Shown one piece after another: positions 20,273 to 40,932 of a DNA stretch of 64,000 nucleotides; within the stretch, counting starts at the first letter, position 1; each line of letters starts with the position of its first letter. The DNA comes from Kondoa subrosea (taxonomy: Eukaryota): contig BCIN01000006.1 in NCBI GenBank assembly GCA_039545335.1, positions 1,178,001-1,242,000 of the forward strand, read 5' to 3'. Made by a program: the position numbers and the translations under genes. Under the pieces are notes generated by a model, which saw nothing but the letters and a program-made list of their open reading frames with translations, was not told the DNA's origin and searched no databases.

Positions 20273-21849
20273 ATGCAAAACAAACAGCCTTGTCCCTCGA
20301 CCAAAAACGAGACTGAGGAAGGAATGGTCAAAGGCAAGGCCAAACAGCTGACAAATGCTGAAGGGGAAGAGCTAGGTTTTGTGGTCGACGTCAAGCCTGC
20401 AAAAATACGCAAACATTTGGAATACATCCCTGTCTCTTCCTCTGCGTCAAGAGCTGGATCTCCTGTATTGGATACTGCTGTAGTTGAGCAGGAGAATGAG
20501 GTCGACCAAGTGATGCATGACAGCGAAGACAGCGTCTTGTCGGCAGCAAAAATCGAAAAGGGCAAAGCTAGGGAAGTTGAACCTACAGTAGAAGAGCTGG
20601 AGGCCTTGAAAGAGTTGCAAGCGGATCAACCTGAAGGGATTGATGTGAGTTCTTCTCTGAAATATGCATAATCGAAACTCATGTCGAATAATAGCGATAC
20701 TATGCAGAAACTGGCAAGCTAGACAAGACACATAAATGCAGTCTGTGCAACGAGTATGGTCACAGCATAAGAGATTGCACGCATCAGCAGTGTTCGACAT
20801 GCGGCGCTCTGGACGATCACTCGTACAAAACATGTCCATTCAATAGAACCTGCTATCGCTGTGGAGCCAAAGGTCATACGGATTCAACATGTCCTAATCC
20901 TCAATCATCACGCTCGATGTGTTGTACAAACTGCAAGAGCACTTCTCATACTGCTTTCGCTTGTCCGACGAATTGGCGCGTCTATACATACCGCTCATCG
21001 AAATCCGACTCTGCCAAACCTCAGCTGGTCAGCTGTTATAATTGTGGTGCATCAAGTACAGACGGATCCGGTCATTTTGGGTAAGCCCTAATTCTAACCT
21101 CACTTGAAATAGTACTGAATGGCAGTTGCAGGGCTGAATGCCCGTTACCTCGAGGTCATCCTTTGCATCACGTCGGACCTTCAGCTTTCACAAATGGAGA
21201 TGGTCCACCTGCTTCTGCTCAATCTCGTGCTCGCAACAATAATACTAAACCTGCATCTTTCAACGATTCTTCCTTTTCCAATCCGCCCACTCACGGAGCA
21301 CGAAGACCGAATATAGTCAATGGCGTCAGACAAAATCATCAACTACCTCTCAGACCATCCAACCGTGGTCCTCATCCGCCTCCATTCCGTCGACCAATTC
21401 AAGATGATTATTCCGATGAAGAGGAAGAAGAACCGGACATTTTCGCTCGGATATCAAAACGTTCTGGTCCTCCTCCTTTTTCGAATCGACCGAGAGATAA
21501 TGATCGAGCAGGAAAGAAACCAAAAATCGCTTTCTCCTTTAGACCACAACCTATGGATATGTTAGACCGGATAGATCGACGAGCTTCACCACCTCCTTCT
21601 TTCTCTACCAGAAGGGATAGGGAATGGGAAAGAATTAGAAGTCCTCCACCTAGAGAAAGAAGAGAGTATAGGAAACCTGCTTTACCTGAAAGAGAAAGAG
21701 ATTTTGGTAGTAGAGATAGAGAAAGAAGGGGGAATGCTGGAGGAATGGCTAGTGCACCTAATTGGCAGAAATTCAAGAAGGAACAGTTGAATGGACGTTA
21801 CGGTGGCAGTGAGGAACGAGATAGAGATAGATTCAGACTCAAGAGGTAG
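20273..21849 (+). CDS. AIR2: Air1/Air2-like zinc-knuckle RNA-binding protein (TRAMP subunit)
   Basis: Five CCHC-type knuckles (CSLCNEYGHSIRDC, CSTCGALDDHSYKTC, CYRCGAKGHTDSTC, CTNCKSTSHTAFAC, CYNCG..GHFGAEC) with linker NWRVY. Confidence 0.8.
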
Positions 21850-21903
21850 TCAGTCGTTCGGCATTCATCTTTGCATTTGCATAGTCTCCATTTGATCTCA
21901 GCT

Positions 21904-23119
21904 TTACTGGTGATGCAACACCTTTACACCTTCCTCCATGAGAAATGCCTTGACATTGGCCGGAAGCTCAAATTCAGCCATAGACATCGACACGTTCTTC
22001 CAGAAAGGATGATCTAGTAGCTGTTCAACTGTCGAGCTGAAGCATGCCATGACCGCGCTGTAGAAGCATGGATCGAGGTGCGTTTGAGTCGTCTTTAAAT
22101 TCGCGATATGGTTTCTGCTTGGGAATGCATGCATGGAGCCTTGACCGGTCTGTATACTTTAATCAATGCGAGCAACATACAGATGGATGAGACTCACCTG
22201 CATCAACCACAATAAGCTTGCCAGTCTGTTCATATCCTTTGCTTTCGATTCGATACTTGCTTCCTCTGCTGTACCGAAATCACAAATCCGAAGCGAGAAA
22301 TCTGGCATTATCAGGACATTGCCACTCTTCTGTCGTATGCTCAGCGCAGATTCAGCTGAGGAATTGCTAAGACATCGTGACTAACGAGATCACCATGCGC
22401 CAGACAAACTTCATTGTGCAAGTACTTCAAGCCAAGCAGTATTTGCCAGGAGAAGTACTTGACGAGAGGCAAAAGTATAGAGCTGGCAAGGCTTCAGCGC
22501 AATACGCAACGTCAGCGCGAAGAACTCGCCATTCGACAGCTGAGGCTACACTTTGGCGCAATTCTTGTTGTTCAGCCGGATCACTTGTAGCGATTTCGAT
22601 CCATCCAAGACCGGTCTCTGGCAGCTTGTCTGCCCAAACTTGCAGAAATAGCTGAAGGCTAGTGCATCCTTTCTCCAGTATAGCCATATCGTATAGATTA
22701 GGATGATCGGCAGTGTAAGATTTGATGATATAAGGGCTGTTCAGCTGGGCGAGCAGTCGTCTTTCCTTTTTTATAGCGCTCAAGCAGGAGTCCCTGGTCA
22801 GAGACATGTTCTTGTCTCTCCTAAAAGTGCAAGGCATCAGCTGTGGTCAGCTTTGGGAAACAATAACACACCAAATCTGGTAATCATGAAGCGCAACCTT
22901 GGCTGCAAATATCTGACCCTGATCATTCTGAATGGTATACAAGGTGGATGCACCACCCCCTCTAGACAACACGTCCGATAAGTGATAGCCGCTGTGTGAT
23001 TCATCAGCTTGTGCGTCTGTCCAGAAGGCGACGTACGCAAGATAGCAAGGCAGGCTATCGATAATTCGATCAGTGCGCAAGAAGTGCCTTTGAGGTATTA
23101 AGTGTGCTGATGAAGTCAT
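21904..23119 (-). CDS. Divergent non-RD protein kinase
   Basis: Spliced: LSRGGGASTLY, FAAKV, KKERRLL, KYFSWQILLGLKYLH, HGDLKSGNVLI, ICDFG, EQLLDHPFW; requires one GC-AG intron (gcgagt..ccag). Confidence 0.8.
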
Positions 23120-23715
23120 ACAGTGAAGTGAGAAGAGAAGACAAAGTCACAAAGAATCGAAAAGTGCGTTACGCAACACTAGAGCACTGACTAAGAGCAG
23201 TGTACTTGATGTACCGACTTTATGCAAATGCGGTACAGCACTGCAGAGAACGATCAATAAACCATATCGATGGATAGTACACAGCTTTGTGTTGCGAAAG
23301 AGTCAGCTCAAAGATTTCAGACGATATACTGTATCGGATCGAGAAGAATCGCCGCGTTGAGAAAAGATATCGCCGTGTGTGACTAGGTGTCAGTAGGTTG
23401 ATTGGACACTGATGGCATCGCATCGCATTGCATGCATTACATCTCTAATGATCTTTGAGGCAGAAAAGGTATGCTAGTAATAGCCTAGTATTATGTACAA
23501 CTGTAGAAAGCCATGACGAACAACGAGAGTAATAAATCAGACGGCTGAAGTGATGGTCTGTCCCTTAAGAGAGTGCCATTCGAAGTAGAAGGAGACAATA
23601 AAGCCAAGACCCATAGCGATGACAGGACTGTGCAAACAAAATAAGCAATGTCAAATACCGAATTGAATACACTCACATGATAAAGGCTTTTTTGAGATCT
23701 AGTCGGAATCTGGGA

Positions 23716-25937
23716 CTATAAATCCCTGTAGTGGTAGTTCGGCTTTGGATTACAATGCGGATGCACGCTGAAGAAGCTCACAGATAAGTCATCTTCTACC
23801 TCCTCTTCATCATCATCATCTTCTGATCTAACCTCCAAACCGTCGCGTCCTCTTCTTATTCTTTCACGGTTCTAGAGTAAGGGGTAAGTGTCAATTCAGA
23901 TGGCTCATGAGAGCAAATACCGAGGTATGAACAGCAGTAGGTGGCAGCATTTCATCCGAGGTTGAGGGAGGCGTTTGATCCAGTCGGCGCAACTATAATC
24001 GGGAGTGAGCCAACATGAAGTTTATGTTTTCCTGACACACACCTTTTTCTTGCCGGGCAGTTTCTTACCGCGACCGACTTCCTTAACGACCTCTACTTCC
24101 GAATCATCGCTCACAAGAGTTGTCTTGCGCTTTGTGGAAGCTCTGCGACCTTGAATCGTATTTGCCGTGCGGCCTGCAAAATTCGTCGCTTTCGCCCTTG
24201 AAAAGTCTCTCTCGAACGAGAGAGGGAGAGCTGACCTGTTCGCTCTACCTGCTTACCAACACCGACAATCTCAACGTCACTGGAATCAGCGACCGTGTGA
24301 ACCTCCTTCTTCGGTTGCACATTCGACTTGCTCTTTCCCTTCAATGAAGCTTTCTTTGAAGCTGCCTTTGGTTGCACTCTGCTCAAGATATGTCCAGTGG
24401 AAGATGAAGATTCTTGCGCTTGTCTGCCATCAGTGTTCTTGCCGAAGAAAGCTGTAATCTGTTTTGTACTATTTGCAATTGCTGATTTTGCTTTGATCTT
24501 GACCTTGCCGATGGCTGAAGTGGAGACAGCAGATTTGCCGTTATCGGCGACTGATATCAAACGGTCAGACTACTTGATCATGCAGGAAGGACCATCGAAA
24601 CAAACCCGGTTTCTCGGGATATTGGTCAGCGACATCTTCCACTAGTGAATGTGAGATGCTGAGCAGATCTTCATGATTGAAAGACATAAAACATACGTGA
24701 GTTTTGGTCAGTATCTTCATCTGCTGAGTCCTCTTCCTTCGCGATCTTCATCAATTCTTTGATGGCAGGTTTCTTCAACGCAAATTTCAAGCTTTCCTTC
24801 TCAACAGTGACCTGTTTGCCTCCGATTTCGAGGTGTAAAGATGAATCTCGGGCAAAGAGGTGCACTTTGCCTTTCGTGCAGGAATTGTATGAGCCTCCAG
24901 GTGGATGAACTCGAAGCGCAATAGATCGGCCCAGCATTTGAGTCTTGTCGTCCCAAATTTGAGTTCCGTTCTCGTCGAATTGAGCAATGTGGAAAGAAAG
25001 AGTGACCCTATCGTTCCCCGGCACCTTTAATGTATGATCGGCCTTCATCCTGTTCCATACAGCACCATCTATGACGCAGTCGAGGAAACTATGATAGCTT
25101 GCCGGCGAAGAACCTCGCAAAGTTGTAATTTGGCCAACACTTTGAAAGGCTATTGAAATAACCGTTAGAGCTTGTATCTGAACAGACTTGATTACTTTAC
25201 TTACAAGCCGGAATCGTCCCATTTTGCTTCAGAAGTTCCACCCACCTAGCAACGGTTCCGTCGTTACTTGGCATTCCTTTGGTTCCACTGCGGGTGCGTA
25301 TGCTCAGTTCTTGCGAGAACTGCATCTTTGCGAATACAGCCGGAAGACCTTGAGGGTAGGCCTCTACTAGATCTTTGTGGGCGATGGAATAACACCGGAA
25401 GCCATAAAAATCATCTTCCCCAGGAATGATTGCCTTTCGGTGGTGGCTAGATCACACGCTTAGATGAATTATGTTGGCCATAGACTCACTCACAATCGTA
25501 AGATAGCAGAATTACCAGTCCGCATCAGGTCGTCCTCTTCTAGCATGAAAACTTTTGTCATGTTCTTCGATTCATGTCAGCCAACGCCGCACCGGGTAAC
25601 TGTATTTACGACATACGTTGTCGTCTGAAGCGTACATCCGGATAGCCACCATCCCTTCCTCTCCGTACTTCGAAATTCGTCCAGTAACCAAGAATGATCC
25701 ACTAGGATCGAGTTGACTCGCTTCGGTCGGTAGCTGGTACAAGGCTTTGCTTCTAATCAGATAACATCATAGGGCGCAAACAGTTGACTGACTTTTATCT
25801 CGAGTTGTGCGCGTTTTCTTGATCCTTTCAACGGTTCCATCGCGAGCGCTTTTCCACCACCCATCAACCAGATTGCTGATTTCTGAGCCCGTGAAAGCAG
25901 CTCCTGGAGCATTCAATTCCACTCCACTTTCCTGCAT
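23716..25937 (-). CDS. Orphan multi-exon protein: globular N-half, K/E/D-rich C-half
   Basis: ATG at 25937 (MQESGVEL), open exons bounded by GT-AG sites including ORFs 24671-25222 and 24111-24560; no recognised family; 3' end approximate. Confidence 0.55.
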
Positions 25938-26190
25938 GATATAACAGGTGAAGAAAGGTAATGCGAACTGAGCGTCAAGATTGGCTAATGAAAAAAGAGC
26001 GAAAGAAACAGAGTAAGAAACAGCGACTAGTGAGGCAGCAGCACAGATAGAGATCAGTGCGATGCGAGAGCGAGAACTTCAGAGCGTATAGTGGCTGTCT
26101 TGCAAGAAGCGGATCTATCTGTTTTCAAGCTTGTTCTCGTACCAAACTCTTCTCTTGCTAGTACCTCTCAAGTCAGCTCCATCTCTGATA

Positions 26191-26505
26191 ATGTCGTCTA
26201 CGTCTTCAGAGCTTGCACCTTCGAGCGTCACTGCTGCTGCTACTTCTGGTGCAGACGACGCATGTTACATCACCATGCCTGTAGCTGAATGGCAGGCTGT
26301 GATGGACGATTTGAGGGCTCTGCAGACACTCTTTCGTAACCTACAGATTCAATTAGATGCTGCTGCGCCCGATGCTGCACTTGCTGGTCAGGGTTTGTTT
26401 GTTTATCTAAGTCTGCTGTCATTACTTCTCAGTCCTCTTTCTCTCTGGATAGGAGGTAACGGCAGCAATGGAGATGCTGAGGATGGAGTTACTAGCAGAG
26501 AATGA
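26191..26505 (+). CDS. Small orphan protein with a short coiled-coil-like segment
   Basis: MSSTSSEL...EWQAVMDDLRALQTLFRNLQIQLD; probable phase-1 intron gtttgt..tag; divergent from the gene starting at 25937. Confidence 0.45.
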   Translation: MSSTSSELAPSSVTAAATSGADDACYITMPVAEWQAVMDDLRALQTLFRNLQIQLDAAAPDAALAGQGLFVYLSLLSLLLSPLSLWIGGNGSNGDAEDGVTSRE

Positions 26506-27043
26506 AAAGAACTGGTCGGAAGAGTTCACCTTGCTTTTGCTGTCAGTGAAGTTTGCTTCCAACTGTTCGCCTTCCCTCACAGCTGATAACTCTTTACTGA
26601 ACAGAATACATGTTTTGCCGTCCATTCCTTCCCTCTCCTTCATTTCATCAACCCTCGCATTGTGTATGTCCTATTAGTCTCGCACTTCCATGATCGCAAA
26701 ATCTCTCGCCTGCTACCGCACTACCAACTTCCAGATCTCTTACTGGAGCAGCAAACAAGAAAGCTTTGATTACGCGTGTTCATCTTGCTTGTTCCAAACC
26801 GACACTTCCCTCATTCGTTCTTGTCGTGCTCGTGGTCAAGAAGATTTCGAGTACGAAAGCAATCGGTGGGGAGCGAAAGTAGGCAATCGAGTAATAGTAA
26901 TTGCGTAGCAGTAATGGATCAATCGTAGGAGTAATGGATCATCGTACATCACTTCGAGATGACACATTCGTCCCTTTGTTTCTGCATTTCGAAGTCTTTC
27001 TTTGAGTTGCAAGAGCAGCTCGACCTGAAGCGACCTATCTGTG

Positions 27044-29072
27044 ATGAAAATCTCCTATCAACCCCTCTTGCGAGCTATTGACCGGGCTCTGGGTAGCGCT
27101 ATCGCTGCTCGCCGCGCTTCTACACGTAAGGTCTGCGCAGCACAGGATTCCACCATCGTCTAATACTACGCAGACGCTACTCCCATCGCAGCAATTCCAG
27201 GCGCGCTGTCAGACAAAGATGATACAGATGCCCATTCAAAAAAAAGAGACAAAGGCAAAGGGAAAGCCAGGAGCTCAGAAGATGAGGGCGAAACCGACAA
27301 TGGTGTGTGCAGCTGAGCAATGTAATCTAGGCATCTACTCAGTGCAGTATTGCAGTATTCACTTTCGCAGAAGAAGATCTTATGGATGGTTTCTTCGCGC
27401 TTGAAGTAGATGAAACGGAAGACATGGCTACAGCTTCAAGACCAGCGACCGAAGCTCAATTAGCTGTACAGGAAGCCATCAGCAGAATCGACGCCATGGC
27501 TGATCGTTGGCAGGCTTTCAACGCTCTCTCAACCGACCAGGTGCTTTCCCAACTAGTAAAAGATGGCGTTGTTCCTTTGCCTGAACGGCTCATCCCACCA
27601 ACCATGTCTGCAGCCAATGTCCAAGCTTTCACTTTCTTCCTCAACCTCTACCAAAACCTTATTTGTGAGACCTTCGAAGGCCCTTCCAATCTTACTGCTA
27701 TTCTCTTGAACTGTATTGAAGATGACAAATGGGTGGAAGCTAGAAGAGTCTACGATCTCTTACACCAAGATCCCTTCACTGTCTTCGAAAATGAAATTCA
27801 AAGTGTTGTCAAATTTCTTCCTATCAACACCAAAGGGGCTATTTACGCTAGAGGTGCAACAAAATGGGCCTCGATAGAGGAACACATCCTGTTCGCTGAA
27901 GAACAGTCCAAAATTTCACCTTCTACCGCGGCTTTCTTTGCACCTTATCTAGTCTATTGGAAGAAACTGCGAAAGGATTATGGAAAGAACGCTTATCTAC
28001 CCGTGCGCTATGCGGGTTTTACCATCAACAAAGCTCAAGATCGCAAGAATGGAGATATTGGAATGGGGTTTACTGCGCACAAGAAGGGGAAACGTGCCAA
28101 ATCGGCTTTCCAATCTTTTATCGCTTTCATGTTCAAGCAAAATCCTGACATGACGGTACAAGAGGTCAAAGATGACTGGTCCTGCGCCGTACTGAACAAG
28201 CGGTTGCCCAATGACATCGACGCTGCTTTGCAAGAGGGCTTCTGGATTACTTTTCTCAAGTCCTTCCTGAACAAGAAGCTCATTGAGGCTGTATTGCCTC
28301 GTAAATTTCCTGCTTGGGTAACCGATCGGTTTGTAGGGTTGCCAAACGTGTTAGACCAGGTCAAGATCTCCCTCTTAGGAAGTTGATGTGTTCTAACTTG
28401 TTCAACAGGTTTTGGTAGTGGGTGCTGAACCTTCATCTCTCGCTACCGGTCAAATGGTCCTTGAAGGAAGATTAAACAGAGCCGTGCAGCCATTTGGTCA
28501 GCTTTACTGCAGTCTGCAGTCTACCGATCAGTCGACTGATGTAACTTGCAGGTTTAACTGCGTGGGCACCCTTCAAGATTGTCGATGTCAACCCTGATGG
28601 CTGGTCCAATGATTGGATCGTGAGAAGAGGCAGACCTTTGCCAGCGGCGTCTCGCATGTCAGAAAAGGCTCGCTCTGCGGTCCTCAAAGCAATCATCCCT
28701 GTAGCCGCACTTTACGTTCTGGGTTTTGCAGCATTGGCTGAACTGTACATTTTGCTTCAAGCCGCTGGTTGTCAGACACTGCGACCGTTCGAAGATCTGA
28801 ACTGGGGAGATACTCAAAGGGTCAAGGTTCAATCTTCTTGGGGAATGGGATCAGAGCGGATTTTAGTTCTTACGGTTGTTCCAAACCCGGGTACAATGCA
28901 AAAGAGATCAGACATCGCTGCAGGCGAATGGGCTTATCTGCTCTCTCTGGGTGTGAGTTTAGAGCGCTATCATCCTTGCCTCGCTTACTGATTAGTTTAA
29001 TAGTATATGTGGATGAGAATGGAAATGGACGTGACACAAGCTGATGCAGACGCACAAATGGATCAAACCTAA
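27044..29072 (+). CDS. Hypothetical protein; putative GIY-YIG-like nuclease domain fused to a MUG/UDG-like domain
   Basis: Exons splice in frame from ATG 27044 to TAA 29072; motifs GAIY..RYAGFT..R..QEGFWI..FLN, then VLVVGAEP..VDVNP..YVLGFAA..VVPNPG. The gene is well supported; the domain call is inference. Confidence 0.6.
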
Positions 29073-29318
29073 TAGCTTTGTACTGCTATCAAAAGTGCGC
29101 TCTTTCAATGTGGTCGGATACCCAAAGACTGATCCATCTCACAGTCTGTCTCCTTCTTCATCATCACAGACAATTCATGTATCAGAGCAACAGAGCAACG
29201 GAGTTTTGAAATTCCCCCCGCGCATGCGGTCACTGAATTTCGCAGATAACCGCAACGCAAAAAGTATATACTAAGGAGTTAAATTGCAAACTTTTGTTCT
29301 TCCTCACATCTGTTCTTT

Positions 29319-30750
29319 TCAAGCTCTCCAACTCCTCCTTTGCTCCACATTCAAACTCATCAAAGTTTCCAAAGCAGCAGCACATTGAAACTGGCTTAAC
29401 AAAGCTTCCGCTTTCCCAAATTTACACATTGTATCCCTTAACCATTCTTCAGGATCATCAGAAGGTAATCGAGGATGTACAGCATAACCAGGTTGCGGAA
29501 CAATAGGTGGTTCATCATCATCAAGAAGATCTTCCATAGGTGATTGTGAAGGTTTCATTCGTTTCTTTTCTCTTGGATTCGATGTCACTCTAGATCTTGG
29601 TTTGGAAGCTTTGACTGGTTTTTCGCTTACTGGTGAAGAAGTTGCTTTATTGCTTGAAGTTAGTCGGGTTGATCGACGAATACCTTCTTTAGCTACATTG
29701 GGTGGAGGTCGTTTCCGGATTGGCGCTGGATTAGGTACTGGTGCTGGAGGAGGTGCTAAAGTAGAAGTAGAAGGTTGATGTGAAGGTTCAGGCGTGAAGA
29801 GACCGGAAGAAGTTGATGCAGTTGGGAAATTAACACCGGGAGCTTGAGCAGAAGCAGGTCCGAAGAAGGATTCATCTGTGCTTGTAGAAGCGCCCAGGAA
29901 AGATGATTGGTTCATAGATGTACCATTAGCTTAAGGCATTGTTCCATCTAGTCTATAGCCAGGAGTATACAAAACACTTCCATCTGAAGTCATGGACGCA
30001 TTGACTGTTCCGTTCGCGAGATGATGACCATTGACCATTGGCTTGTGATCCTCGTCGAATTGGAGATGTTGCACAGATTGCAAATGGAAATCCGCATCTG
30101 GCGCTTTCCCAAGCAAACACAATCCTTCCCAAGCTTCCCAACACCACCAACATTCTTTCAAAGCCGCTTGGAAATAAGCTGCAGCTTTCTCTGATTTGTT
30201 CGCTTTGACTGCCATGTGAGCTAATTTGACTTGAAGAGCAGCAGCACTTGGTCCGACAGTAACAGGGAACTGCATTTCTTCCGGATTGATGACTCCATTC
30301 TTGGTCAATTTGTCCAAAGCTTTCTGCAACACCGCTTGACCTTCTTTGACATTCTCTATTCCTTCCTACTGCAGCACAAGCTTGAGAATACACCCAAGCG
30401 CATCTCAATGAAACTTGCTTTGCTGGTTTGGTAATTTGACTGGAACGATATTGAGTATGCCAGGATTTGATGTTATTAGCTGCTTTGGATTGTAATGCTT
30501 CAGGTTTCCTAATGTGTTGTCGTAAAGTATCCATTGCACCAACAGCGTTCCCATTTCGAAGTAAAGACAAAGCCAAGTAGTAAGCTGGTGCTTCATCTGA
30601 TGGAAGCATGATGTGTAGACGTTCGGCTAAGAAGAGAGCTGTTGCGTGCATCTCGCTTGAGAGGGATTTGATGATGAGGTCGGTCAAGTATTCGATCAGA
30701 GCGACAGAAGGGTTGCTCCTTTGCGTTGAAGGACCATTGGAGGTGCTCAT
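29319..30750 (-). pseudogene. CDC27: CDC27/APC3 5' fragment, disrupted
   Basis: Apc3 N-terminal TALFLAERL..YYLALSLL, ALKECWWCWEAWEGLC, LLSQFQCAAALETL; 10-bp duplication frameshift at 30336-30355, in-frame TAA at 29931-29933, C-terminal TPR array absent. Confidence 0.85.
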
Positions 30751-30980
30751 CTTGAGGTAACAGAAGTGCTAAGTAGCAGAATAGGAGCGGAAGTACAGCC
30801 TTCAAACCAACATATGAGCGCGAATCCAGATGAAAGCGAGGTGTTCTTCTTGTACAGACTCAATCCAGGTCCTCAAACGGCAACAAAGGGTATCACAGTG
30901 CTACTCCAGATATGTTCCAGCAGGTCTAAAGGCGAAAAACAAAGTCACGGTCACTGGTCAACCTCGCTCGACGAAAATCA

Positions 30981-31781
30981 ATGGCCAAGGGCACAGCAGC
31001 AGCAGTCTCAGGCGATGCTCTAGAGGATGACTTCCAGCTGGATGATATTCCAGATAGTCCAGCAGCTGAAGAGGCTCACTTGTCTGCTTCACCTGAACCT
31101 GAAGATTCAGCGAAACCTAGCAAAAAACGTAAATTAGAGGAAGAGCCCAAGCCCAAGAAGGAGAAAGTGTGTAACCGTGTTATAAATTCGGATTTTGCTG
31201 TAGCTCAGACTCGATATTGTTCAGAAACCCAAGCGAAGCAAAAAGCAAGCTGTGGAAGATGAAACCCCTACGATTTGTTTCGCAATTCCTGCAATGCAAA
31301 CGAATCATCTAGAAACGAAACTCCTGCAATGCAAACGAATCATCTAGAAACGAAACAATCCGCTGCATTGCGTAAAGCTAGTGATCTAGAGAAAGACGAA
31401 TTGCGTTTTCAAGGTAAGCCAAAAATCACGAAGATCTATCTGGAGCAGAAGATCTCATTGTAGTGCAGAGAGCCGGTTCTTGGATGTGTCGACGTACCCG
31501 CTGGAAGATCGAAAGACTATGTCTGCGTTTCTGAATAAAGGTATATTGTCTTTCAATTTTATGCTATCTTCGGAAGCTGATCTAGATGCTTGAGTACAGT
31601 TATACCTTCGCTAAGTCGTGTGCTGATACTTCGATTCTATCTATTTCAACAGCTAGCAGAGCACGAAAGCTACTGTTCCACGACGGCTTTCAGCGCAGCG
31701 ATAGGTACACGAGATCGTAAAGCGAAACTCATCGCTTCTTCTGCGTTGGCGTTTGATTCAACGAGATACCTTGTTCTGTGA
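30981..31781 (+). pseudogene. CMS1: CMS1/CMSS1-like fragment, disrupted
   Basis: GDALEDDF N-terminus, ASDLEKDELRF, AAIGTRDRKAKLI..ALAFDSTRYLVL*; 35-bp duplication frameshift, central conserved block apparently deleted, premature stop. Confidence 0.7.
31287..31356. repeat. Perfect 35-bp tandem duplication
   Basis: tcctgcaatgcaaacgaatcatctagaaacgaaac at 31287-31321 and 31322-31356. Confidence 0.97.
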
Positions 31782-31878
31782 TACCATGACATCCTGGAAG
31801 TCGCAAAGGCTTATCATCAAACAGCGGATGTGTTGTGTCTTTCGAGCCAGCAAATAATTGAATCATATATGCTTAAAA

Positions 31879-33013
31879 TCACTCGTAGACATCGTTTCGC
31901 TTAAAGTCTTCTACTGTTCGTAGTGTCATCCTTCGTTTCTTAGACCGTTCTTCTCCCTCGTTGTTTGCTTCCATCTTTCTTTTCGATAATCGTTGACCAG
32001 CCAACAACTTCTGCTGAATCACTTTGTCATCTTCAGCTTCGAACATAGGTTTGAGCCAATGTTCTGCGCATCCACAAGGGCTCGCTTCAGTAAAATATTC
32101 AGGGCCATATTCGATTAAAAGCTGATCATGAGCCTGAATGGGTTTGCCAAGACTGAAAAGGGAAAGGCTGCCATCCGTTTCTCTCTTCAACTTGACATTC
32201 GCTCTCTCGCAGGAAGAGTTGAGAAGCCGCAGAGGCCCGGTAATGACATAGACTGAAAGCAAGTAAGCATTTTTCATGGCGTCGAGCAAAGCTTCGCTTA
32301 CCTTTTTTATTGATACGGATGGTAGAAAAGGCATATCCATGCTTTATCATCAGACCTTCTTCCTGCCTATTCAGTTCAACTAGAGAGCTGAATCGGCTGA
32401 TGATTTTGCTATTCTTGTGAATATCGACTTGCGCCTTCACCTGGCATTGAGGGTTTCCGTTATGCAGGTGAGCTACGTCGTCTACAGTATATGTCTGCTG
32501 TGAGACATGATCTAATGCGCGATCGCCATAGATCCATTTACGCCAATCTCGAGAATACCTACCAACGAAAGTAAGCTCAAATTTCGAGGTGAGAGCGACG
32601 ACTCACTTTGACACCCATTTAGCTACTTCAACTTCGTCTTGGCCTATCTTAAAAGTCCCTCCCTTCGCATCTTTTGTCCAGAGACATTTCTCACTCATGG
32701 CTTCTGACATGATGATGAAATATTGCTCTAAAGCTGTAGTAGATGCTATTCGAGCAGCATATTGTCGTGCAATCTTCGGCTCCAAGAGCTTTGCATCACA
32801 TTGAGGTCGTGTTTCGAAGAGCCGAGTGGTTTCCGAAGTGTCTTGCTTCTTCGTGTTGTGGAAGACTTGGAAGAAATTAGATTCTACAGCCAATCCAGTC
32901 CATTTTTTCCGGGTCAAGCTCGCACAGAAGCTCTTCTGCTTTTTTGGCATTCTGGTAAGCAAATTTTGGCAAATTTGAGAAAAAGGTTTGCTTTCACATT
33001 CAGGTGCGTACAT
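31879..33013 (-). CDS. Divergent SET-domain protein, Set9/KMT5-like
   Basis: Three exons splice to LVELNRQEEGLMIKHGYAFSTIRINKKVYVITGPLRLLNSSCERANV...IQAHDQLLIEYGPEYF...PCGCAEH. Confidence 0.75.
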
Positions 33014-34103
33014 GGTTTCAAATGACCCAGAACTAAACTCTTACGGTATTCTGACACAGTGGGAGCACACTATATCTGGTCCGAGCGACAACAGAATGCA
33101 CGAAAATTCAGTCTTCTCTCCTTGCTCCTCTACTCTCTCTCGTCAACGATCTTGAAGACTAGAACTGGTCAGAGCTCTGCTGTATGCCATGATGAGCATC
33201 ACACAATATGCTTTAGCCTACGGTATCTGTTGTCCTAGCTAGATTACCTTCAATCAGTCATGGCAATTCCTTCAATTCTCTGAATTGAAGGATTTGGGAA
33301 AGAAACGCGTAGCCCTTTTGGGACCACCTGATGAAATCGTTTTGCTATTCTCTTTGTTGGAAGGCTTATTCAATGGCTAGCTCTCCTGTTACAAAAATCA
33401 ACTTAGCTGAATCTCTGTTCTTTCAGGTTTGATAAAGCCATTTGATGCCACACCTGCCTTTCTGGCAATCTTCACTCCCTTCTGCGATCTTGTGTCAACA
33501 AAGAAGGACCAGCAAGCATTTAAATCAGTTCTTCACGCGCTTTACAGATCGCTCAAAGACTGTTCTCTTTGTCGCTCGAATCCATTTGCTGTTTTGGATA
33601 AGGCTGCTTAAGCGATGGAACCCCGAGATCTTAACAAACTCCTTCACAAAGACCATCAAATGCCCTTCGCCAATGAACGATATCTGTCGTGCAGGAACAG
33701 CTAGCTTGTTACTCAGTTCACCTACTTCAATTTTTCCTTCGCTATTACCAGATTGCTTAAGACCAACTTTTGGGTGTGCTGCAAAGCTAATATTGGATGA
33801 AGTTCAAGACATAGACCTAGTCAGGCCGCTCGACTTCCACTATATGAATTACTGAGTAGTCATTTACGCAGTTTGCCAATCTGAAGGTAGCTGAGGTAGA
33901 GAAGCGGCTATGAAGAGGCGTCTGTTGAATGCCAACCTCTCAGTGACGGATCGAAAGACAGCCTGTCTCTGTAGTCTAGCTCTTATTGGGTCGTGCTATG
34001 TGGCTCATGCACATGTACCTCTGAGTATCTGTCAACAGCATGGGATGTGTCGTCGTAAGAGACAACCATAATACAAGCTCAACTACAAGCTGGTATCTAA
34101 TGG

Positions 34104-36096
34104 TCAGAGCACTTCCTGTGCTTGAATGTGCACCTCTTCACGAGAATTCAACTGAATTTCATACAGCCGGAGCGAATGATCTATTGCACAATCGGTCAAT
34201 CTTGCGCTCACTGAGAAGTCCTGACTTACAAAGCAATTCATCATAGCGGATCAGATCTGCTGCTTCATTGTCCGTTCGAACCCTTGCTGTCCTCTCTTTT
34301 GCTTTGACTTGAACAGCGTTGATAGGTACGAAATCCATAGCGACCTTCAAGCAGTCGGTGTGATTTGTGACCTAAGATTGGTGATAATCCGTTTGGTAAA
34401 GAATCGAAAGTGCGTGAACACTGACCTGATGAAGACTGCCACTGCTCGACACTTGAGCTCCCGATCTGGACGTCGAATTGAGTGACTTACGTAGGAATAT
34501 AGATCATGTCGCCTTTCTTCTGCTCTGCATATATTGGATGTACATCCCTGAGTGCTAAAGCGTCGATTATTTCTTGATTCACTTCGATCTGAAATGAGTA
34601 GGGCGAGAGCTCAGGCCGCAGTCGACAGCAGACTTCTTCCACTGCGTGCTGATGTTCGGGTGCGAACAAGATCCACTTCGCGAGCTCGCCAGCTACCTGC
34701 ACTGAATCAGCTGTTAGAAGCCAGTTTTTTTTGGAAGGGGCAAACTAGTAGATTCTGTCGAGGATCCCAATGAGGATGTGAGATTGCCACATAGATGCAA
34801 ACGAGCTTACCACAGCAGGTGCAGGATCCGCATGGAGAGGCGTAGATGTAGGTTTCTCCGTAGCTGTTGCCGTGTTGCCAGCGTTAGCCTGATATATTTT
34901 CGGTCCAATGTCTGGTACAAGTCCCTCCAGCGGGAGATAAGCTATCCCAGGCGAGTAATAGTAGTTGGAGAAAACATACAGAAGTAGGGAATGCAGAAAC
35001 GAGATTGTGCGATCCATTTCGTACTATCCATTTTGCAAACTTGTATTCCGATAGTGCTGTATACTGCCTAGGCAGAGCTTCCGCAAAATGAGCTGTAGTT
35101 GGCCAGTCCTAAACTCGGATAAGCTGACTCTACCATGGGCGATAGGCAGAAATCCGAACCTTCAGTCTGGCAAAAGCGATATCTCTTGATTTGCGCGATG
35201 ATCCGAAGGAACCCATATACTCAGCAAGCTCCATACTTTTAACTGCATGATTGGTTGTGTAGATTTGGACCATCTTCTCGTGAGCTCGCATGTCCTCAAT
35301 CAGATTCGCTAGTTTCCAACAATCTGCATTCAAAGGACATGCGGATAGAACGAAAGGAACGTCTTGCTCTATCAGGGATTGAAAAGCGTCTTCTGTACAC
35401 TCTGCATAAGAGATGGTGGTAATTAGGCCTAAACGTTTCGAAGAGATTGAAGACTTCGAGGTGAGAAGGAGTGGCAGAAAGGCTATATAGCTAGGAATCC
35501 GACTGAGAAGAGAAGAGAGCACTTTGGTGTTGATGCGACTTATCGGTAGATAGAAATGTGTACCGTTGAAGGAGTTGCAAAGCGGTGATGTTTGACTGAG
35601 TGCGGGATGACAATCGAGACATACCAGACTATGAGAAGAGTATGAGTATGAGTAATCACAGCATTCGCATTAGTACCCGAACATACTCGTTACATTTGTT
35701 ACATCTGAAGAAGCACAGAGTCGAGCTTGAACAGCGGTCGCAAGAAAAGATGGTAGATTGTAGCGATGTATAATTCCGAGCATTCGGTAGTGATGAGTGT
35801 AGCAGCCAAGCATCCAGCATCGGCCGAGCAGCCCTAGCAAGAATAGCGAGATGTGCTTTAAGTTCTGCAGTTGACATGCTGCCAGTAAACGTGTTGCGAT
35901 ATAGGACAGCACTCTGAGCAGATGATTTATTACTATACTTCGCTTGCTGTCCTGCTGTCAATTCTCCCAAGGGCACCTGCTTCTGCAGGCCTGAATGCTT
36001 CCTTCCTCCTCTCTTGTTCTTCACAGTCACAGTCTTCTCTGACTTCTTTTCAGTGTCAGCGATAGCCTGCTTGCGTTTGCTGGACTTGCTGGTCAT
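34104..36096 (-). CDS. JmjC protein of KDM3/JHDM2 type with N-terminal Cys-rich zinc finger
   Basis: CDRC..CNKC..CLDC finger; DWP..F; PDIGPKIY; TPLHADP; QKKGDMIYIPTGSLHQVTNHTDCLKVAMDFV across intact splice sites; last exon uncertain by ~25 nt. Confidence 0.85.
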
Positions 36097-36345
36097 GTGA
36101 ATGAGCTGCTAGGGTATCGTTTGAAAAAAACAACAATGCGTTATGAAATGCAAGACAATAATCTCATTTGCTCAAGTACTGTCTATCCGGAAGGGGATCG
36201 AGTGCCCGACTGTTGTTATTGTTTTTGTTCTTGCCTTTCCTTCTGCTTTTACTTCAATACTATTGTATCGCTGCTCTTTCCCAATTCTCTCGCTCTTTCT
36301 CAATTCTCTCATGTACCTTCTGCTCTGATGTTACATGGCCCGGAC

Positions 36346-36469
36346 GCTCTTCATTGCTGGACTTCGGTCCTCTGCAGCCTTGAGTTTGTCGGATCGTAAC
36401 TGCCACAATGTTTCGAAATGCTCTTCATTGCTGGACTAGTTCCTTTGCAGCTTTGAGTTTGTCGAATCG
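36346..36469. repeat. ~50-bp imperfect direct repeat upstream of the JmjC gene
   Basis: gctcttcattgctggact..cct.tgcagc.ttgagtttgtcg.atcg at 36346-36396 and 36420-36469. Confidence 0.9.
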
Positions 36470-37299
36470 CGGCAGAGCAAGGGGAATGATAGAGATGACA
36501 GAGGCGAGAGAATAAGGATCGTTCATTGCAAAGTAAGTATCACCAGTCGTAGCAGAGAGCTACCTTAATTGATTCTTTTATCGTTAGATCCAAGCGATGA
36601 AGTCTGATTGTTTTGTCTTCTCTGTATCCACCCGTGCTCTTCTGTTATAATCTATCGGTCGATATTCTGTTTGAAAAGGAAGCTGTCATTCTTTCCTCAT
36701 ACTCGAAGAGATTGTGGGACATACCGACCTGTTTGCTCGCGGCTGATGCTCTGCTGGAAAGACCAATCGATTCCCTCCCATGCTTCAACTCCGACAGCTC
36801 TGGCGCAAGTTATTCAACAGATTCATTCGCCGATTGGCAACCTGCGAAGCGTTTTGTCAGACTTGCTGCTGCCGATCAACTCTGTCAAAAGGTCCAGCAC
36901 TCACGCGCATGATACCATTGAATCTCGAACTGATCATCACCGTATCGGCGTGACGTTGCATCAATCTACTGATCACAGGCTGGTGCTTGATTCTGCAATG
37001 GATTGAAGGAGAAAGAACTTCGACTATTGGTGCTCTAGAACCACGAGAAGTACTACAATCTGGTACGAGGTTCGTCGTAGGCCCGCTAAGAGCATCATAG
37101 CCAGTGTCGCAGGTCAGGTACAGGTTCAGAGCGGCAGATTGGGCTATAGATTTTGAATGAAGTAGCCTGATGTTGCTTCGGTGATCTCAAGATTCATGCA
37201 GAGGTGGGCATGAGGAGCACCAGATGACAGCCGTTGATCAGCGGCTGTGCTGAGGAAAATCTTGCAGCTTGAAGCCAATCAGCGGGTTGTCAAGACACG

Positions 37300-37912
37300 A
37301 TGATCACAAGCCTGTTATATCGACCAGCTCTATCTTGCCAAAGATGCAGCAGCTTCCGATATCTGACTACTGGAGTACCAGAGGCATTGGTAGGCTCACG
37401 AGAAAGGATAGCTCAAAAACGGCAGCAGTATGAACAGAAGTATGGGCAGGCGCTTGAGGCTGCAGCTAAGGCGTAAGCGACTCGATCTTTGTCTTCAGTT
37501 CTTGTTCATCTGGATGCCAGAAAAGGAGTAGACTTGCAAACGTTGAAGGACAAGGCTCGTCGAGCTGAAAGATTGAAACCAATCAAGCCATTCACTCAGC
37601 TCTCAAGCTATCAAGCAATTCATCTACGCAACAGATACCTTCTGCTGTTGTAGCTCCTTCATTACCGAGCGGGATAGATCAAGCGAGGAGCAAAAGCGGC
37701 ATCAAGGTCAGCAATCCTCTCTTCAGTTTCAGCCGAGCTCAAGGTATGTATAGCCTCTTTCGGACATCATAGACCTACAGAAGCTTCTCACAAGGCATCC
37801 TGCACCTCCAGCTGAGGAGATCTCTGCCCTTTGGAAAGCTTACCATGCGTCAGCCAAATCAACAACGAAACTAGGCGCCGTCATCCCAGTCGAAACCTAC
37901 AGACGAATGACT
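37300..37912 (+). pseudogene. ATP11: ATP11 (F1-ATPase assembly chaperone) 5' fragment, disrupted
   Basis: Presequence-like start, KYGQALEAAAKAKGVDLQTLKDK, GIKPLSDIIDLQKL..EISALWKAYHA..GAVIPVETYRRM; exon 2 frameshifted (TAG at 37651); truncated at a splice donor. Confidence 0.75.
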
Positions 37913-37941
37913 GTAAGTCTCGGCGCCTGCTTAGTGAGTGA

Positions 37942-38440
37942 TCGAGAATGCGGCACACGCGAGATAACACCAGAAGCCAGTCAGTAAGCCAGCCAAGAGT
38001 ATGCTGCGTCAGCTTCAAGGAGCGCAGCATCATGCAATCTTGCGAAAGAAAACACTGCAAGTGATCATATTGTAATCCAAGGTACTTTCGAAACCTTGTG
38101 CATGGTCCCGGGTGAGCGTATGGATCCCAAACTGATCCACAGCACGAGAAGGTGGTTTCGAGCGGTCGAACACGTATAAAAATATAAAAGCGGTCCGACA
38201 TAACTCATGAGACGAAGCGCATCCCTGACCAGCGAAGAACGACTGGTATAAGGAAGATGATTATGTCCTGGCGAAAGTTGCAATCTGTTTGCCAGATGAA
38301 GTAAGGTTCATTTCATTGTCGCGCATCCGGCTCAATGTATGGAGAAACGGCCTTAACACAGCAGCCAGCAAATGGAATTACTGCTCCACTTTCCGCCTTT
38401 CAATGATTGATGATCGCTCTCATACTAGAAGAATGGACTC
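37942..38440 (+). pseudogene. MOT1: Decayed composite copy of the MOT1 upstream region and an internal MOT1 segment
   Basis: 37942-38195 aligns by eye to 40599-40865 (shared atgctgcgtcagcttcaag, agcacgagaaggtgg); 38205-38440 aligns to 42845-43097 (shared tgtttgccagatgaagtaaggttcat, agcaaatggaattactgct, atactagaagaatgg). Confidence 0.92.
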
Positions 38441-38448
38441 CTCTCGCA

Positions 38449-40466
38449 TCATATCTTTTGAAAGATCTTGTAATTCCCCTGAATCTTGAATTTTGCTTGA
38501 AGGAGGATGAAACCCGCTATAACGAAGCAAGCTCCTGTAAATCCGACTGCAGACAAATAGATAGCGACGCTATTGACTGAGATCAGAGTTCGACTCTGGA
38601 TTTTTCAAGTAAAAAAACATACCCCATTCGCCCGATGCCTCGTTCGCTATGCACAGAGTTCATTAGCTCGTGTAATGTGATATCACACAGTCCGCTTACT
38701 AGTCCGCTAGAGCTGCCGCAATTGGCGAACTGAACAAGCAGGGAACAACCACAGACAACCATAGGATAGCCAGACTATCGACATGTCAGTATTGCCTGCT
38801 GAGAACGAGGAAATATCCTACGCTGAACCCAAATGCTGCAGACCAACGCATTCCGCAGTTACAGGGGCACTTGCTCCCCTAAAGATTGATATGTTAGGTA
38901 GGAGCGGCTATCATATGAATTTCGCGTACCAGAAAGCTCCTCCCGACATACCTGTGAAAGAATCAGACGGGATCAATAGAGGCAACATCGAAACTAACCA
39001 TTGACAACAGCGAAGAAGATCATTACACCATAAGACCGGTTATTGAGCCTGCGTAAAATAAGTGATGCCCAGGGAGTATAGACTAATGACACGTACCAAA
39101 TGATCAGGATCTCCAGACCGCTGACGATGGTGAAAAAGGCAGCCATATTGATCCGTCCAAATCGATCCAATGCAAACCCAATCATGGGTCTTCCAACCAT
39201 TTGGCCAGCACTGAATACAGCTTGCAAGATCGATCACTGAGATTGAGTGAAACCGAGAGCTTGAGTTCCAAAGGTCGGGATTGTGTCTGCGAGCAGGGAT
39301 ATTCAGCGTAGCTCATTCGTACAGGTATTATGACTCACAGAGACAAATGACATATGCAAACATTGAGAACACGCCCCAGAGCCAAACCCAAGTGAAAGAC
39401 GGATGAACCAAAAGCGAAAGCTGTAAAGGCTCGAATTTGGCAGAGATGGTTTTCGTGCGCGCTAGATGCACTGTGAGGCGGCAGTCAGAGAGATGCAAAG
39501 GACTGCTTACATTTGGAAAAGATTGTGACTGGTATCAGGATAATAAGAGAAATGAGCCCATTAGCGATGAATGCCCATTTCTAGAGTCTCACTTGAGCCA
39601 ATTTTCATGCGACAAGATCTTGACTTACCAAGCTATGCCTTTCGATGATAATGCGGGTAGTGATGGAAAAAACGAAACCGCCAAAACCAGAGCCTCTGTT
39701 AATCGGAATGATTAGCCAGAATAGTAGCATATCAAGTGACGACAGACGCTACCGCGATACCAGCCGCTAGAGCTCTTTTTTTGTTGCTGGTGTACACTGG
39801 ATAAGCGTGAAGCAGGGCAAAAGCATTTATGACTCACAACCATTGCTGAGTCAAAGGCTGGGTAGGCACCATCAATAAACCCAACCCGAATCCGAACATA
39901 ACTCCAATGGTAAGAAACAGTTGCCAGATTTGGATCGTAAAAGCAGCTGCTATTTGAGATCCGCTGTAGAGACAAATGCCGATAACCATAGGTACTTTCT
40001 GGATCACCTAATAAGCAGAACTTCAAGCCGCAGATACAAGCACGGACAAAGTGAAAGCGCTTCGAGAGATAGTTTGCCAAAGGTGCAATCAGTAACGCTA
40101 GACCTATCGACATCCCTCCGGCAAATGTGTATTGCAGACTTGTTGCTCCAGGGTAGTAATCATTGGCAATGAAGAAGGATAGAAAGACACCCCATGTTGT
40201 GTTGATACCCTATGAAGATCGTTAGTCGGAGGAGTTTGAGTTGATGCAAGTGGAACAAACCCATGTTGCTGTAAATAAGTTAGTCAATGTACCGCGTTGG
40301 AATAAAGAAATGCTATACCTGCATTGTTCATGAACAGACAAGCCAAAATGACCCAACCATATCCACCATCAGGAGCAGGAGCAGGTGTCGAAGATTCTGT
40401 AGGGATCGCATCGTCTTTGTCCTCTGGGCGTATTGGAATCTCTGTGTCGGCAGAAATCTTGTTCAT
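38449..40466 (-). CDS. MFS transporter, monocarboxylate porter (Mch-like) family
   Basis: PDGGYGWVIL, ATWGINTTWGVF, GRPMIGFALDRFGRINMA, multiple hydrophobic exons; ends KIFQKI*. Confidence 0.88.
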
Positions 40467-40932
40467 GTTCACAACCACGGACGCTCTTGGTATCAATCAG
40501 GATAAAGAAGAAGAAGGGAGAGGGAGTGCAAAAAGCAAACATTGCGTGAACGGAAGATGGATTCTCATTTCGCGCGTCAGTCCTCGGCGACTCTTAGCTC
40601 GAGAATGCGGTGTATGAGGGATGAGAGAAATACAGTAATCAGTGACCAGCCGAGAATGCTGCGTCAGCTTCAAGCAAAGCAGTACATGGTACCAAGGAGG
40701 AGGCATCATGCTGAGTCTTCGCAACAACAAACACAAGTAATATAATCTCAATCCAAGGCAATTGGACGCTTTCGAGAGCTTGCGATGGTTTCGAGTGAGC
40801 GTACAGATCACAAGCACAAGCACGAGAAGGTGGCTTCGAGTGGTCGAACACTATAAAAGCAGCTCGTTCTGAACCATGTAGGGAAATGTAAGGGCCACTT
40901 TCGTGTAGCCTGAATTTATACCATAGCCTTGT

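Follow-up and report, generated by a model that had tools for sequence, protein, structure and literature searches.

Structure of the two genes

A 64,000-nt window of the genome of the fungus Kondoa subrosea (assembly GCA_039545335.1, contig BCIN01000006.1, positions 1,178,001 to 1,242,000) was found to contain two neighbouring genes for divergent chromatin enzymes, one with a Set9/KMT5-like SET domain and one with a KDM3-like JmjC domain. The genome comprises 18.9 Mb in 27 contigs, among them C1, C2, C4, C5, C6 and C7 (the window, meaning the whole stretch, is C6:1178001-1242000); L0xx denotes labelled loci in these contigs, and bare coordinates refer to the window. The exon and splice models of both genes are predictions. 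The short introns and the gene complement indicate a fungus, presumably a basidiomycete.

31879..33013, minus strand: divergent Set9/KMT5-like SET gene, 3 exons, 345 or 324 amino acids (aa)
33013 (or 32950)-32607, 32558-32302, 32252-31879, minus strand: exons of the SET gene, predicted splice model
34104..36096, minus strand: divergent KDM3-like JmjC gene, 9 exons, 523 aa
36096-35687, 35628-35160, 35108-34980, 34924-34811, 34754-34746, 34696-34491, 34441-34426, 34371-34230, 34180-34104, minus strand: exons of the JmjC gene

The original prediction, made from the sequence of the window, had described two divergent genes approximately 1.1 kb apart on the same strand with intact splice sites. This was confirmed: the gap measured 1090 nt, and all 10 modelled introns were of the GT-AG type. 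The SET introns were 48 and 49 nt long (phases 2 and 1), the eight JmjC introns 49–58 nt, and neither reading frame contained an internal stop. A branch-like motif was found in seven of nine modelled introns, two being without one. The SET start codon is uncertain, as a possible extra intron (33044-32991) would delete the first ATG. The JmjC gene includes a 9-nt micro-exon (34754-34746), and reading through its last intron gives an alternative end at 34159 and a protein of 521 aa. A single fused SET-JmjC gene was rejected, since both JmjC end models terminate before 34104 and no strong donor was present in 33040-34110.

The region 31398-36195 spanned one contig at single-copy depth in two DNA runs (141.8 versus 140.5 and 54 versus 54.8). 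Both runs represent one sample, perhaps the assembly's own source, and the even depth and single contig argue solely against a collapsed repeat or mis-join. At E ≤ 0.01, Pfam matched none of the nine SET and JmjC pieces among 39 open reading frames (ORFs); at a looser cut, SET was matched at E = 0.038 and JmjC at E = 0.072. Single SET and JmjC exons searched against the PDB gave no SET or JmjC match.

The SET gene

By sequence comparison, the window SET is a predicted member of the KMT5/Set9 family, KMT5 being the closest among the SET families. The spliced protein scored 86 against the canonical Set9 of this genome (shuffle maximum 68) and 87 against a paralogue on C2 (shuffle maximum 61), and all 300 shuffles scored lower in both comparisons; identity with the canonical Set9 was 36% over 67 columns. 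A four-sequence profile including SET exon 3 had KMT5B/SUV420H as its best PDB family (E 1.6e-10; next family 4.5e-6). When a profile was built from three clearer KMT5-like SETs, with the window gene excluded, the window SET received 55.6 bits and eight other SET families of the genome at most 25.5. ESM Atlas assigned exon 3 to SET clusters with a score of 0.92 and 148 features in common (29 of 30 matches), which is a lead only, and the predicted fold of this exon had a mean confidence (pLDDT) of 48.4.

The protein retained F-S193, G-P, N212, C215, Y249, C260 and C262. S193 aligned with the canonical D-F-S, so that the active-site Ser is present, and F-S is followed by a two-residue deletion. 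Two features had been overlooked in the original prediction. The NH cofactor-binding motif (RFxNHxC) reads N212-S213-S-C215, with Ser213 in place of the His, and the post-SET zinc ligands appear to be C215, C260, C262 and H265 (Cys3His), with His265 replacing the last Cys. Sites described for Suv4-20h2 (active-site residue Ser161, Phe191, Trp174, Ala178 and Tyr217; PMC3874154) were transferred onto the gene by spacing: Ser161 and Tyr217 were kept as S193 and Y249, while Phe191 was replaced by Leu222, Trp174 by Ile and Ala178 by Leu. At this Phe switch site, the position of which follows from spacing, the canonical Set9 carries Met, and the C2 paralogue and two sequences from outside this genome (P0002 and P0004) carry Phe. 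Active PR-domain enzymes that lack the NH-motif His exist. The His of the NH motif has been described as required for activity (PMC12633793, PMC12886896). Since it is absent, the window SET may be weak or dead, and we regard inactivity as marginally the better guess.

P0002 and P0004 were two of the three matches of a representative protein search. P0002 (E 1.6e-13, 38–40% identity) was colinear with SET exon 3 from the first residue to the C-terminus, retained N-x-S-C and CxCxEHW as in the window SET, and appears to have the same zinc-ligand arrangement. Because a relative of such low identity has the same oddities, these are not fresh decay and the lineage is old. P0004 is a SET protein of 215 aa encoded on a public contig of 2.2 kb. 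It carries LLNSSC and the full CxCxxC, an indication that other organisms also have KMT5-like SETs without this His. The third match, P0003, was dropped as a chance repeat match. A phylogeny against the canonical Set9, as proposed in the original prediction, was constructed with 13 rows. It placed the window SET with P0002 (100/99) and then with P0004 (89/97, not starred), apart from the genome's Set9. The inner branches were mostly weak, one of 10 being starred (well supported), branches were long, and monophyly of the five KMT5-like rows was neither established nor rejected (p-AU 0.268, approximately unbiased test). Among longer proteins, none of 8000 scored candidates matched the SET profile at E ≤ 0.001, a weak negative. 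A SET DNA pattern gave 10 matches in the genome versus 8 in its control, the window gene being the sole SET among them.

The JmjC gene

The predicted JmjC protein is closest to the KDM3 family. It matched the canonical KDM3-like copy of this genome at 25% identity over 412 columns (E 2.9e-24), and the spliced protein scored 240 against it, the highest score among 300 shuffles being 53. A profile dominated by the canonical copy matched KDM3B/JMJD1C at E 1.4e-25, and its PDB matches at E < 0.1 were KDM3B and JMJD1C only (7 of the 8 listed sequences). Both family labels given in the original prediction, Set9-like and KDM3-like, were upheld by these profile matches.

The protein consists of a basic N-terminus, a six-cysteine finger (C119-C143) and the JmjC domain. 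Three CxxC pairs at 119, 132 and 140 make up the finger, which aligned with that of the canonical copy and shares a phase-2 intron with it. The motifs DWP, PDIGPKIY (PDxGPKxY), Thr, HxD, the distal His and the Lys were retained; the Fe ligands and Lys named in the original prediction were all present as H367-A-D369, H450 in SLHQV and K460 in CLKVA. Together with T364, these residues aligned with KDM3B in a PDB alignment, and we take the five to bind Fe(II) and 2-oxoglutarate. The window JmjC is probably catalytically active. Its substrate site is altered, with P-A-P for the V-S-D that follows HxD and with the later DP motif absent, and these changes may affect specificity. The known KDM3 substrate is H3K9me1/2 (PMC2579438); given the two changes it is plausible but not safe as the substrate here, and we hold it at a little under even odds.

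Two introns of the window JmjC occupy the same codon and phase in the canonical gene, as does a third under one of two canonical end models; five or six are missing from the canonical copy. Because intron positions are shared, the gene arose by DNA-level duplication, and a retrocopy origin was rejected. The low identities to the canonical copies (25% for JmjC, 36% for SET) indicate that the paralogues split long ago.

Canonical copies and a third Set9-like gene

As the original prediction had proposed, both window genes are extra copies. The canonical Set9, with full GPARFCNHDC and CxCxxC motifs, lies at C5:1158110, and the canonical KDM3-like gene at C2:130788; the window genes are hence not the genome's only copies in conserved synteny, the situation that had been named as fatal to the prediction. 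The intron pattern of the window SET was unlike that of the canonical Set9. A genome search returned 14 SET matches and five JmjC matches at four loci, both window genes being absent from them, whereas a KDM3 motif pattern occurred at exactly two places in the genome, the window and C2:130788 (control, 0). Protein queries against the genome miss divergent paralogues, the canonical KDM3 query having failed to recover the window JmjC gene, so further hidden copies are possible.

A third Set9-like gene was located at C2:3296046-3297437 (L036:6046-7437). It encodes 432 aa in an open frame with two introns (phases 2 and 1), and its motif A-Q-S-D-C lacks both the Asn and the His of NH. It is flanked by a biotin-carboxylase and a UBR-box piece, both of them seemingly broken, and no JmjC match was found within 40 kb around it. 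The original prediction had suggested counting co-occurring paralogue pairs; the pairing was not repeated at this locus. A tblastx test for synteny, covering 100 kb around the canonical Set9, the canonical KDM3 and the C2 paralogue, gave one match (a kinase, 39% over 46 aa).

Several side observations concern related genes. The kinase-like gene at the left end of the patch described below resembles a kinase at L042:100-1201, approximately 4 kb from the canonical Set9, which is the sole trace of a shared neighbourhood. The SET at L018 looks Clr4-like, by eye only. A Set2-like region is duplicated (C4:24314-30000 and C6:1323661-1329255, L066 and L067; 5.6 kb, 93% identity), and the duplicate near the start of C4 looks shortened in its SET domain.

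A patchwork of gene pieces around the two genes

The island setting was likewise borne out. Both genes lie in a non-syntenic patch of gene pieces that extends from approximately 21900 to 38440 and is bordered on both sides by ordinary genes. A DNA search of 21800-39000 against the genome returned 14 matches, and the following features were recognised.

21900..29300, no strand assigned: left island block, a kinase-like gene and orphan genes
~22190-23000, minus strand: kinase-like gene, left island end
~23500-25900, minus strand: spliced orphan gene
26092-26502, plus strand: orphan ORF
27331-28988, plus strand: orphan gene with a 351-aa first ORF, single copy
29320..30750, minus strand: 5' half of a CDC27 (APC3) copy, truncated, with 92% identity to the intact gene near C6:1061718
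30970..31777, plus strand: decayed 5' part of CMS1, ending approximately 100 nt from the SET stop codon
33560..33729, plus strand: decayed 170-nt copy of COPA (coatomer alpha) between SET and JmjC, 86% identical to C7:940739-940908, two 1-nt indels
35990..37916, no strand assigned: C1-subtelomere-like stretch, 89% identical to C1:3512-5443 (L039)
37260-37916, no strand assigned: subtelomeric repeat with an ATP11 piece, matching eight places near contig ends (L022-L029)
37981..38440, plus strand: scrambled pieces and upstream region of a MOT1-like SNF2 ATPase gene, 73–89% identical, parent adjoining; right edge of the patchwork

The CDC27 and CMS1 pieces were copied together including their shared promoter, at 92% identity to C6:1061718-1063964. 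The CDC27 piece carries one 10-nt insertion (a frameshift) and one stop, i.e. two lesions in 1.4 kb. Against the intact gene, its nonsynonymous and synonymous divergence (dN and dS) were 0.017 and 0.157 over 470 codons (dN/dS 0.11). As dN is low relative to dS, most of this divergence accrued while the copy was functional, and its death falls within the last 0.017 changes per site or so at most, which hints that a second lineage or a long-lived duplicate may have supplied the debris. The dN/dS values of the short COPA, MOT1 and ATP11 pieces were affected by alignment-end artefacts and were not used.

The C1-like stretch reaches into the JmjC gene: identity was 87–99% upstream of it and approximately 64% over its first 36 codons. 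The locus at C1:3512-5443 has a counterpart of this upstream region and of the basic N-terminus, the latter diverged, and then runs on into unrelated sequence. The composition of the gene core matched its surroundings (GC 0.452 versus 0.46–0.47 in the flanks; CpG likewise).

For the left block, no family and no second copy were found. The predicted fold of ORF 27385-28383 was unusable (pLDDT 37.9). A GIY-YIG-like Y-x-G-x-T motif noticed by eye in ORF 27331-28383 was without support from family scans and was discarded. In the repeat copies at L022, L023 and L026, the ATP11-like ORF has long open frames. The contig ends at L025, L026 and L027 carry an approximately 20-nt repeat of two related 10-nt halves, probably the telomere repeat. 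A major-facilitator transporter region (38441-40495) is duplicated at C6:583766-585818 with approximately 81% identity.

Selection and decay

The flanking copies carry stops or indels, unlike the SET and JmjC genes, and both genes appear to be under purifying selection, or to have been so until very recently. Neutral decay was simulated on the 324-aa and 521-aa models with 1000 runs per gene and setting. With 0.017 changes per site, the simulated chance that both genes stay intact was 0.03–0.09; it fell to 0.015 or less with 0.03 changes per site and was 10–47% at 0.005–0.01. The simulation is modest evidence, because the genes may have arrived later than their neighbours.

Mobility and co-occurrence

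The original prediction had described the genes as island-borne copies. No signs of a mobile element were found, and the COPA fragment separates the two genes. The scanned island ORFs, some of them orphans, contained no transposase, recombinase or Rep/helicase family. A genome-wide Helitron search gave 0 matches, as did its control. Terminal repeats or target-site duplications were not found at the island ends, which are approximate: 15 zone pairs yielded two 11-nt matches, with approximately 1.1 expected, and an 11-nt repeat shared by 31846 and ~38365 falls within the MOT1 copy and is no more than chance would give. None of the island genes tested, SET and JmjC included, had a second copy in this genome. 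A second SET-JmjC pair was found neither in a metagenome scan, where 2 of 322 candidates passed and both were bacterial chance matches (off-frame or unrelated), nor in viral scans (none of 71 and none of 11 candidates). Full-text searches of open-access papers listed no KMT5-like plus KDM3-like pair, and 10.1101/2025.06.16.659975 gave nothing relevant. Signs of separate histories are the COPA piece that lies between SET and JmjC, the recurrence of the upstream region and N-terminus of the JmjC at the unrelated C1 locus, and the lone C2 paralogue.

The designation of the genes as a writer/eraser pair is not supported, the marks of the two families being different (H4K20 and H3K9). Nor would an active Set9 shield the island, as had been suggested, because H4K20me3 made by Kmt5 is a silencing mark in Zymoseptoria, the fungus studied (PMC10553808; likewise PMC9963178). 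The window SET itself, with NH changed to NS, may be inactive. The missing His allows a decoy, and the shield idea survives only with the SET in this role.

Interpretation

Given the gene structures, families, extra status, single copy and patchwork setting documented here, the best explanation, to which we assign a probability of about 0.5, is that two old, separately evolved spare paralogues were made neighbours by rearrangement without forming a joint machine. SET and JmjC would have been brought together in a patch prone to rearrangement, where orphan genes and broken housekeeping copies accumulate. The JmjC would act as a nuclear Fe(II)/2-oxoglutarate-dependent methyl-lysine demethylase. 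The SET would probably still fold, bind zinc and dock on the H4 tail or the nucleosome, with methyl transfer that is weak, directed to another target or lost. On this reading, each of the two would serve as an accessory regulator of chromatin under particular conditions, alongside its canonical counterpart.

Several results weigh against this explanation. Under random placement, the chance of adjacency was approximately 0.02 for any SET beside any JmjC and 0.0006–0.02 for the extra copies, values that depend on an assumed gene pool and on a test chosen after the fact. Codon usage scores of the two genes (-0.007 and -0.046) were not separated from those of 30 non-coding controls (-0.086 to 0.033). 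The nearest kin of the SET in the 13-row tree are foreign sequences rather than the genome's own Set9, and P0002 comes from a 1.8-kb public contig that leaves its neighbours outside view. No relative of the divergent JmjC was found among longer proteins with the profile (0 of 1557) or with exon 2 (0 of 69), both weak negatives. Finally, the mostly functional divergence of CDC27 fits arrival from another lineage, as do the foreign kin of the SET.

Under such an arrival, the block, or just the genes in it, would have entered from a related fungal lineage by introgression, hybridisation or horizontal transfer; the housekeeping pieces would be donor alleles cut at junctions, and the two genes passengers with no joint role. 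The CDC27 piece, truncated and carrying a stop and a frameshift after a divergence of dS 0.157 and dN 0.017, is in keeping with it, as are the grouping of the SET with P0002 and P0004 and its intron pattern unlike that of the canonical Set9. However, GC and CpG in the gene core are like those of the flanks, the introns resemble host introns in length and signals, the pieces trace back to numerous unlinked host loci, among them the adjoining MOT1-like gene, and the tree is weak from long branches; we consider foreign arrival unlikely, if still worth reckoning with. Both genes might instead have died recently, having been displaced from their regulatory context and silenced too short a time ago to have gathered lesions. 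They are surrounded by debris, the sequence upstream of the JmjC is a mosaic shared with a subtelomere, the SET lacks a residue described as required (PMC12633793, PMC12886896), and both stay intact in 10–47% of simulations at 0.005–0.01 changes per site. But all 10 modelled introns are GT-AG, both frames are open over approximately 2.5 kb, the youngest dated neighbour (CDC27) already has two lesions in 1.4 kb, and the odd SET residues are common to a deep relative instead of being fresh damage; we consider recent death unlikely as well.

Joint function was weighed in the form of an anti-silencing cassette, in which the JmjC would remove H3K9me1/2 and the His-less SET, as a decoy on H4K20, would block the canonical Set9, the two being kept as selfish or accessory island cargo. 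Here the genes are adjacent, co-oriented and intact amid decayed neighbours, an adjacency improbable by chance; the NH change is common to P0002, P0004 and, as Q-S, the C2 paralogue; Kmt5 silences in Zymoseptoria (PMC10553808); and fungal transposons with TET erasers and oomycete elements with SET genes have been described (PMC12730594, PMC4067079). It is nevertheless a single copy with neither transposase nor terminal repeats, COPA debris lies between its genes, no JmjC match accompanies the C2 paralogue within 40 kb, and metagenome and viral scans gave no second pair; we think the cassette unlikely. Its fuller version, a two-gene cassette of an H3K9 demethylase and a crippled Set9 decoy from an old His-less clade that would keep the island or its neighbours out of heterochromatin of both the H3K9me and the H4K20me3 type, the pair moving between loci or lineages without a known transposase, is more doubtful still.

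If the two genes are indeed separately evolved spare paralogues, this fungus has retained three Set9-like genes along with two KDM3-like ones, and the clade without the His (the window SET, P0002 and probably P0004) would offer a natural test of the KMT5 fold without the NH His, including a reader or decoy role. As such genes escape Pfam in genome scans, the chromatin enzymes of fungi have probably been undercounted.

Comparison with known systems

The window SET resembles KMT5/Suv4-20/Set9 enzymes (KMT5B, PDB 7yrd; Suv4-20h2, PDB 4au7; PMC3874154) in F-S, G-P, the Asn, the Cys, the SET-C Tyr and two post-SET Cys. It differs from them in the Ser that replaces the NH His, Leu at the Phe191 site, Ile and Leu at the Trp174 and Ala178 sites, the two-residue deletion and the putative His zinc ligand, and also in its intron pattern and its location as an extra copy in a patchwork. 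The window JmjC shares with KDM3/JMJD1/JHDM2 enzymes (KDM3B, PDB 4c8d; JMJD1C; PMC2579438) the cysteine finger followed by JmjC, DWP, PDxGPKxY, the Thr, HxD, the distal His and the Lys. Unlike them, it has only 523 aa, P-A-P for V-S-D and no DP motif, and is 25% identical to the canonical copy of its own genome.

More than one Set9-like gene, as in this genome, is also known from Paraphoma chrysanthemicola and Rhizopus delemar, for which section 23 of PMC9692433 lists lineage-specific duplicates of Suv4-20-group genes. The extra genes here are very divergent, with an altered NH motif, and one stands beside a spare KDM3-like gene; section 23 mentions nothing of this kind.

Chromatin enzymes have also been found on transposons. 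Fungal DNA transposons carry TET/JBP (PMC12730594), and HarbingerS, MuDR and proto-Helentron elements of Phytophthora carry SET genes (PMC12730594, PMC4067079). They share with the window intact modifier genes outside the core DNA and captured pieces of genes close by. The window differs in having no transposase, Rep/helicase, termini or second copy, and in combining a KMT5-like with a KDM3-like enzyme rather than carrying a TET or Clr4-like one. Should the cassette nonetheless prove real, it would be a histone-level counterpart to the TET-carrying fungal transposons.

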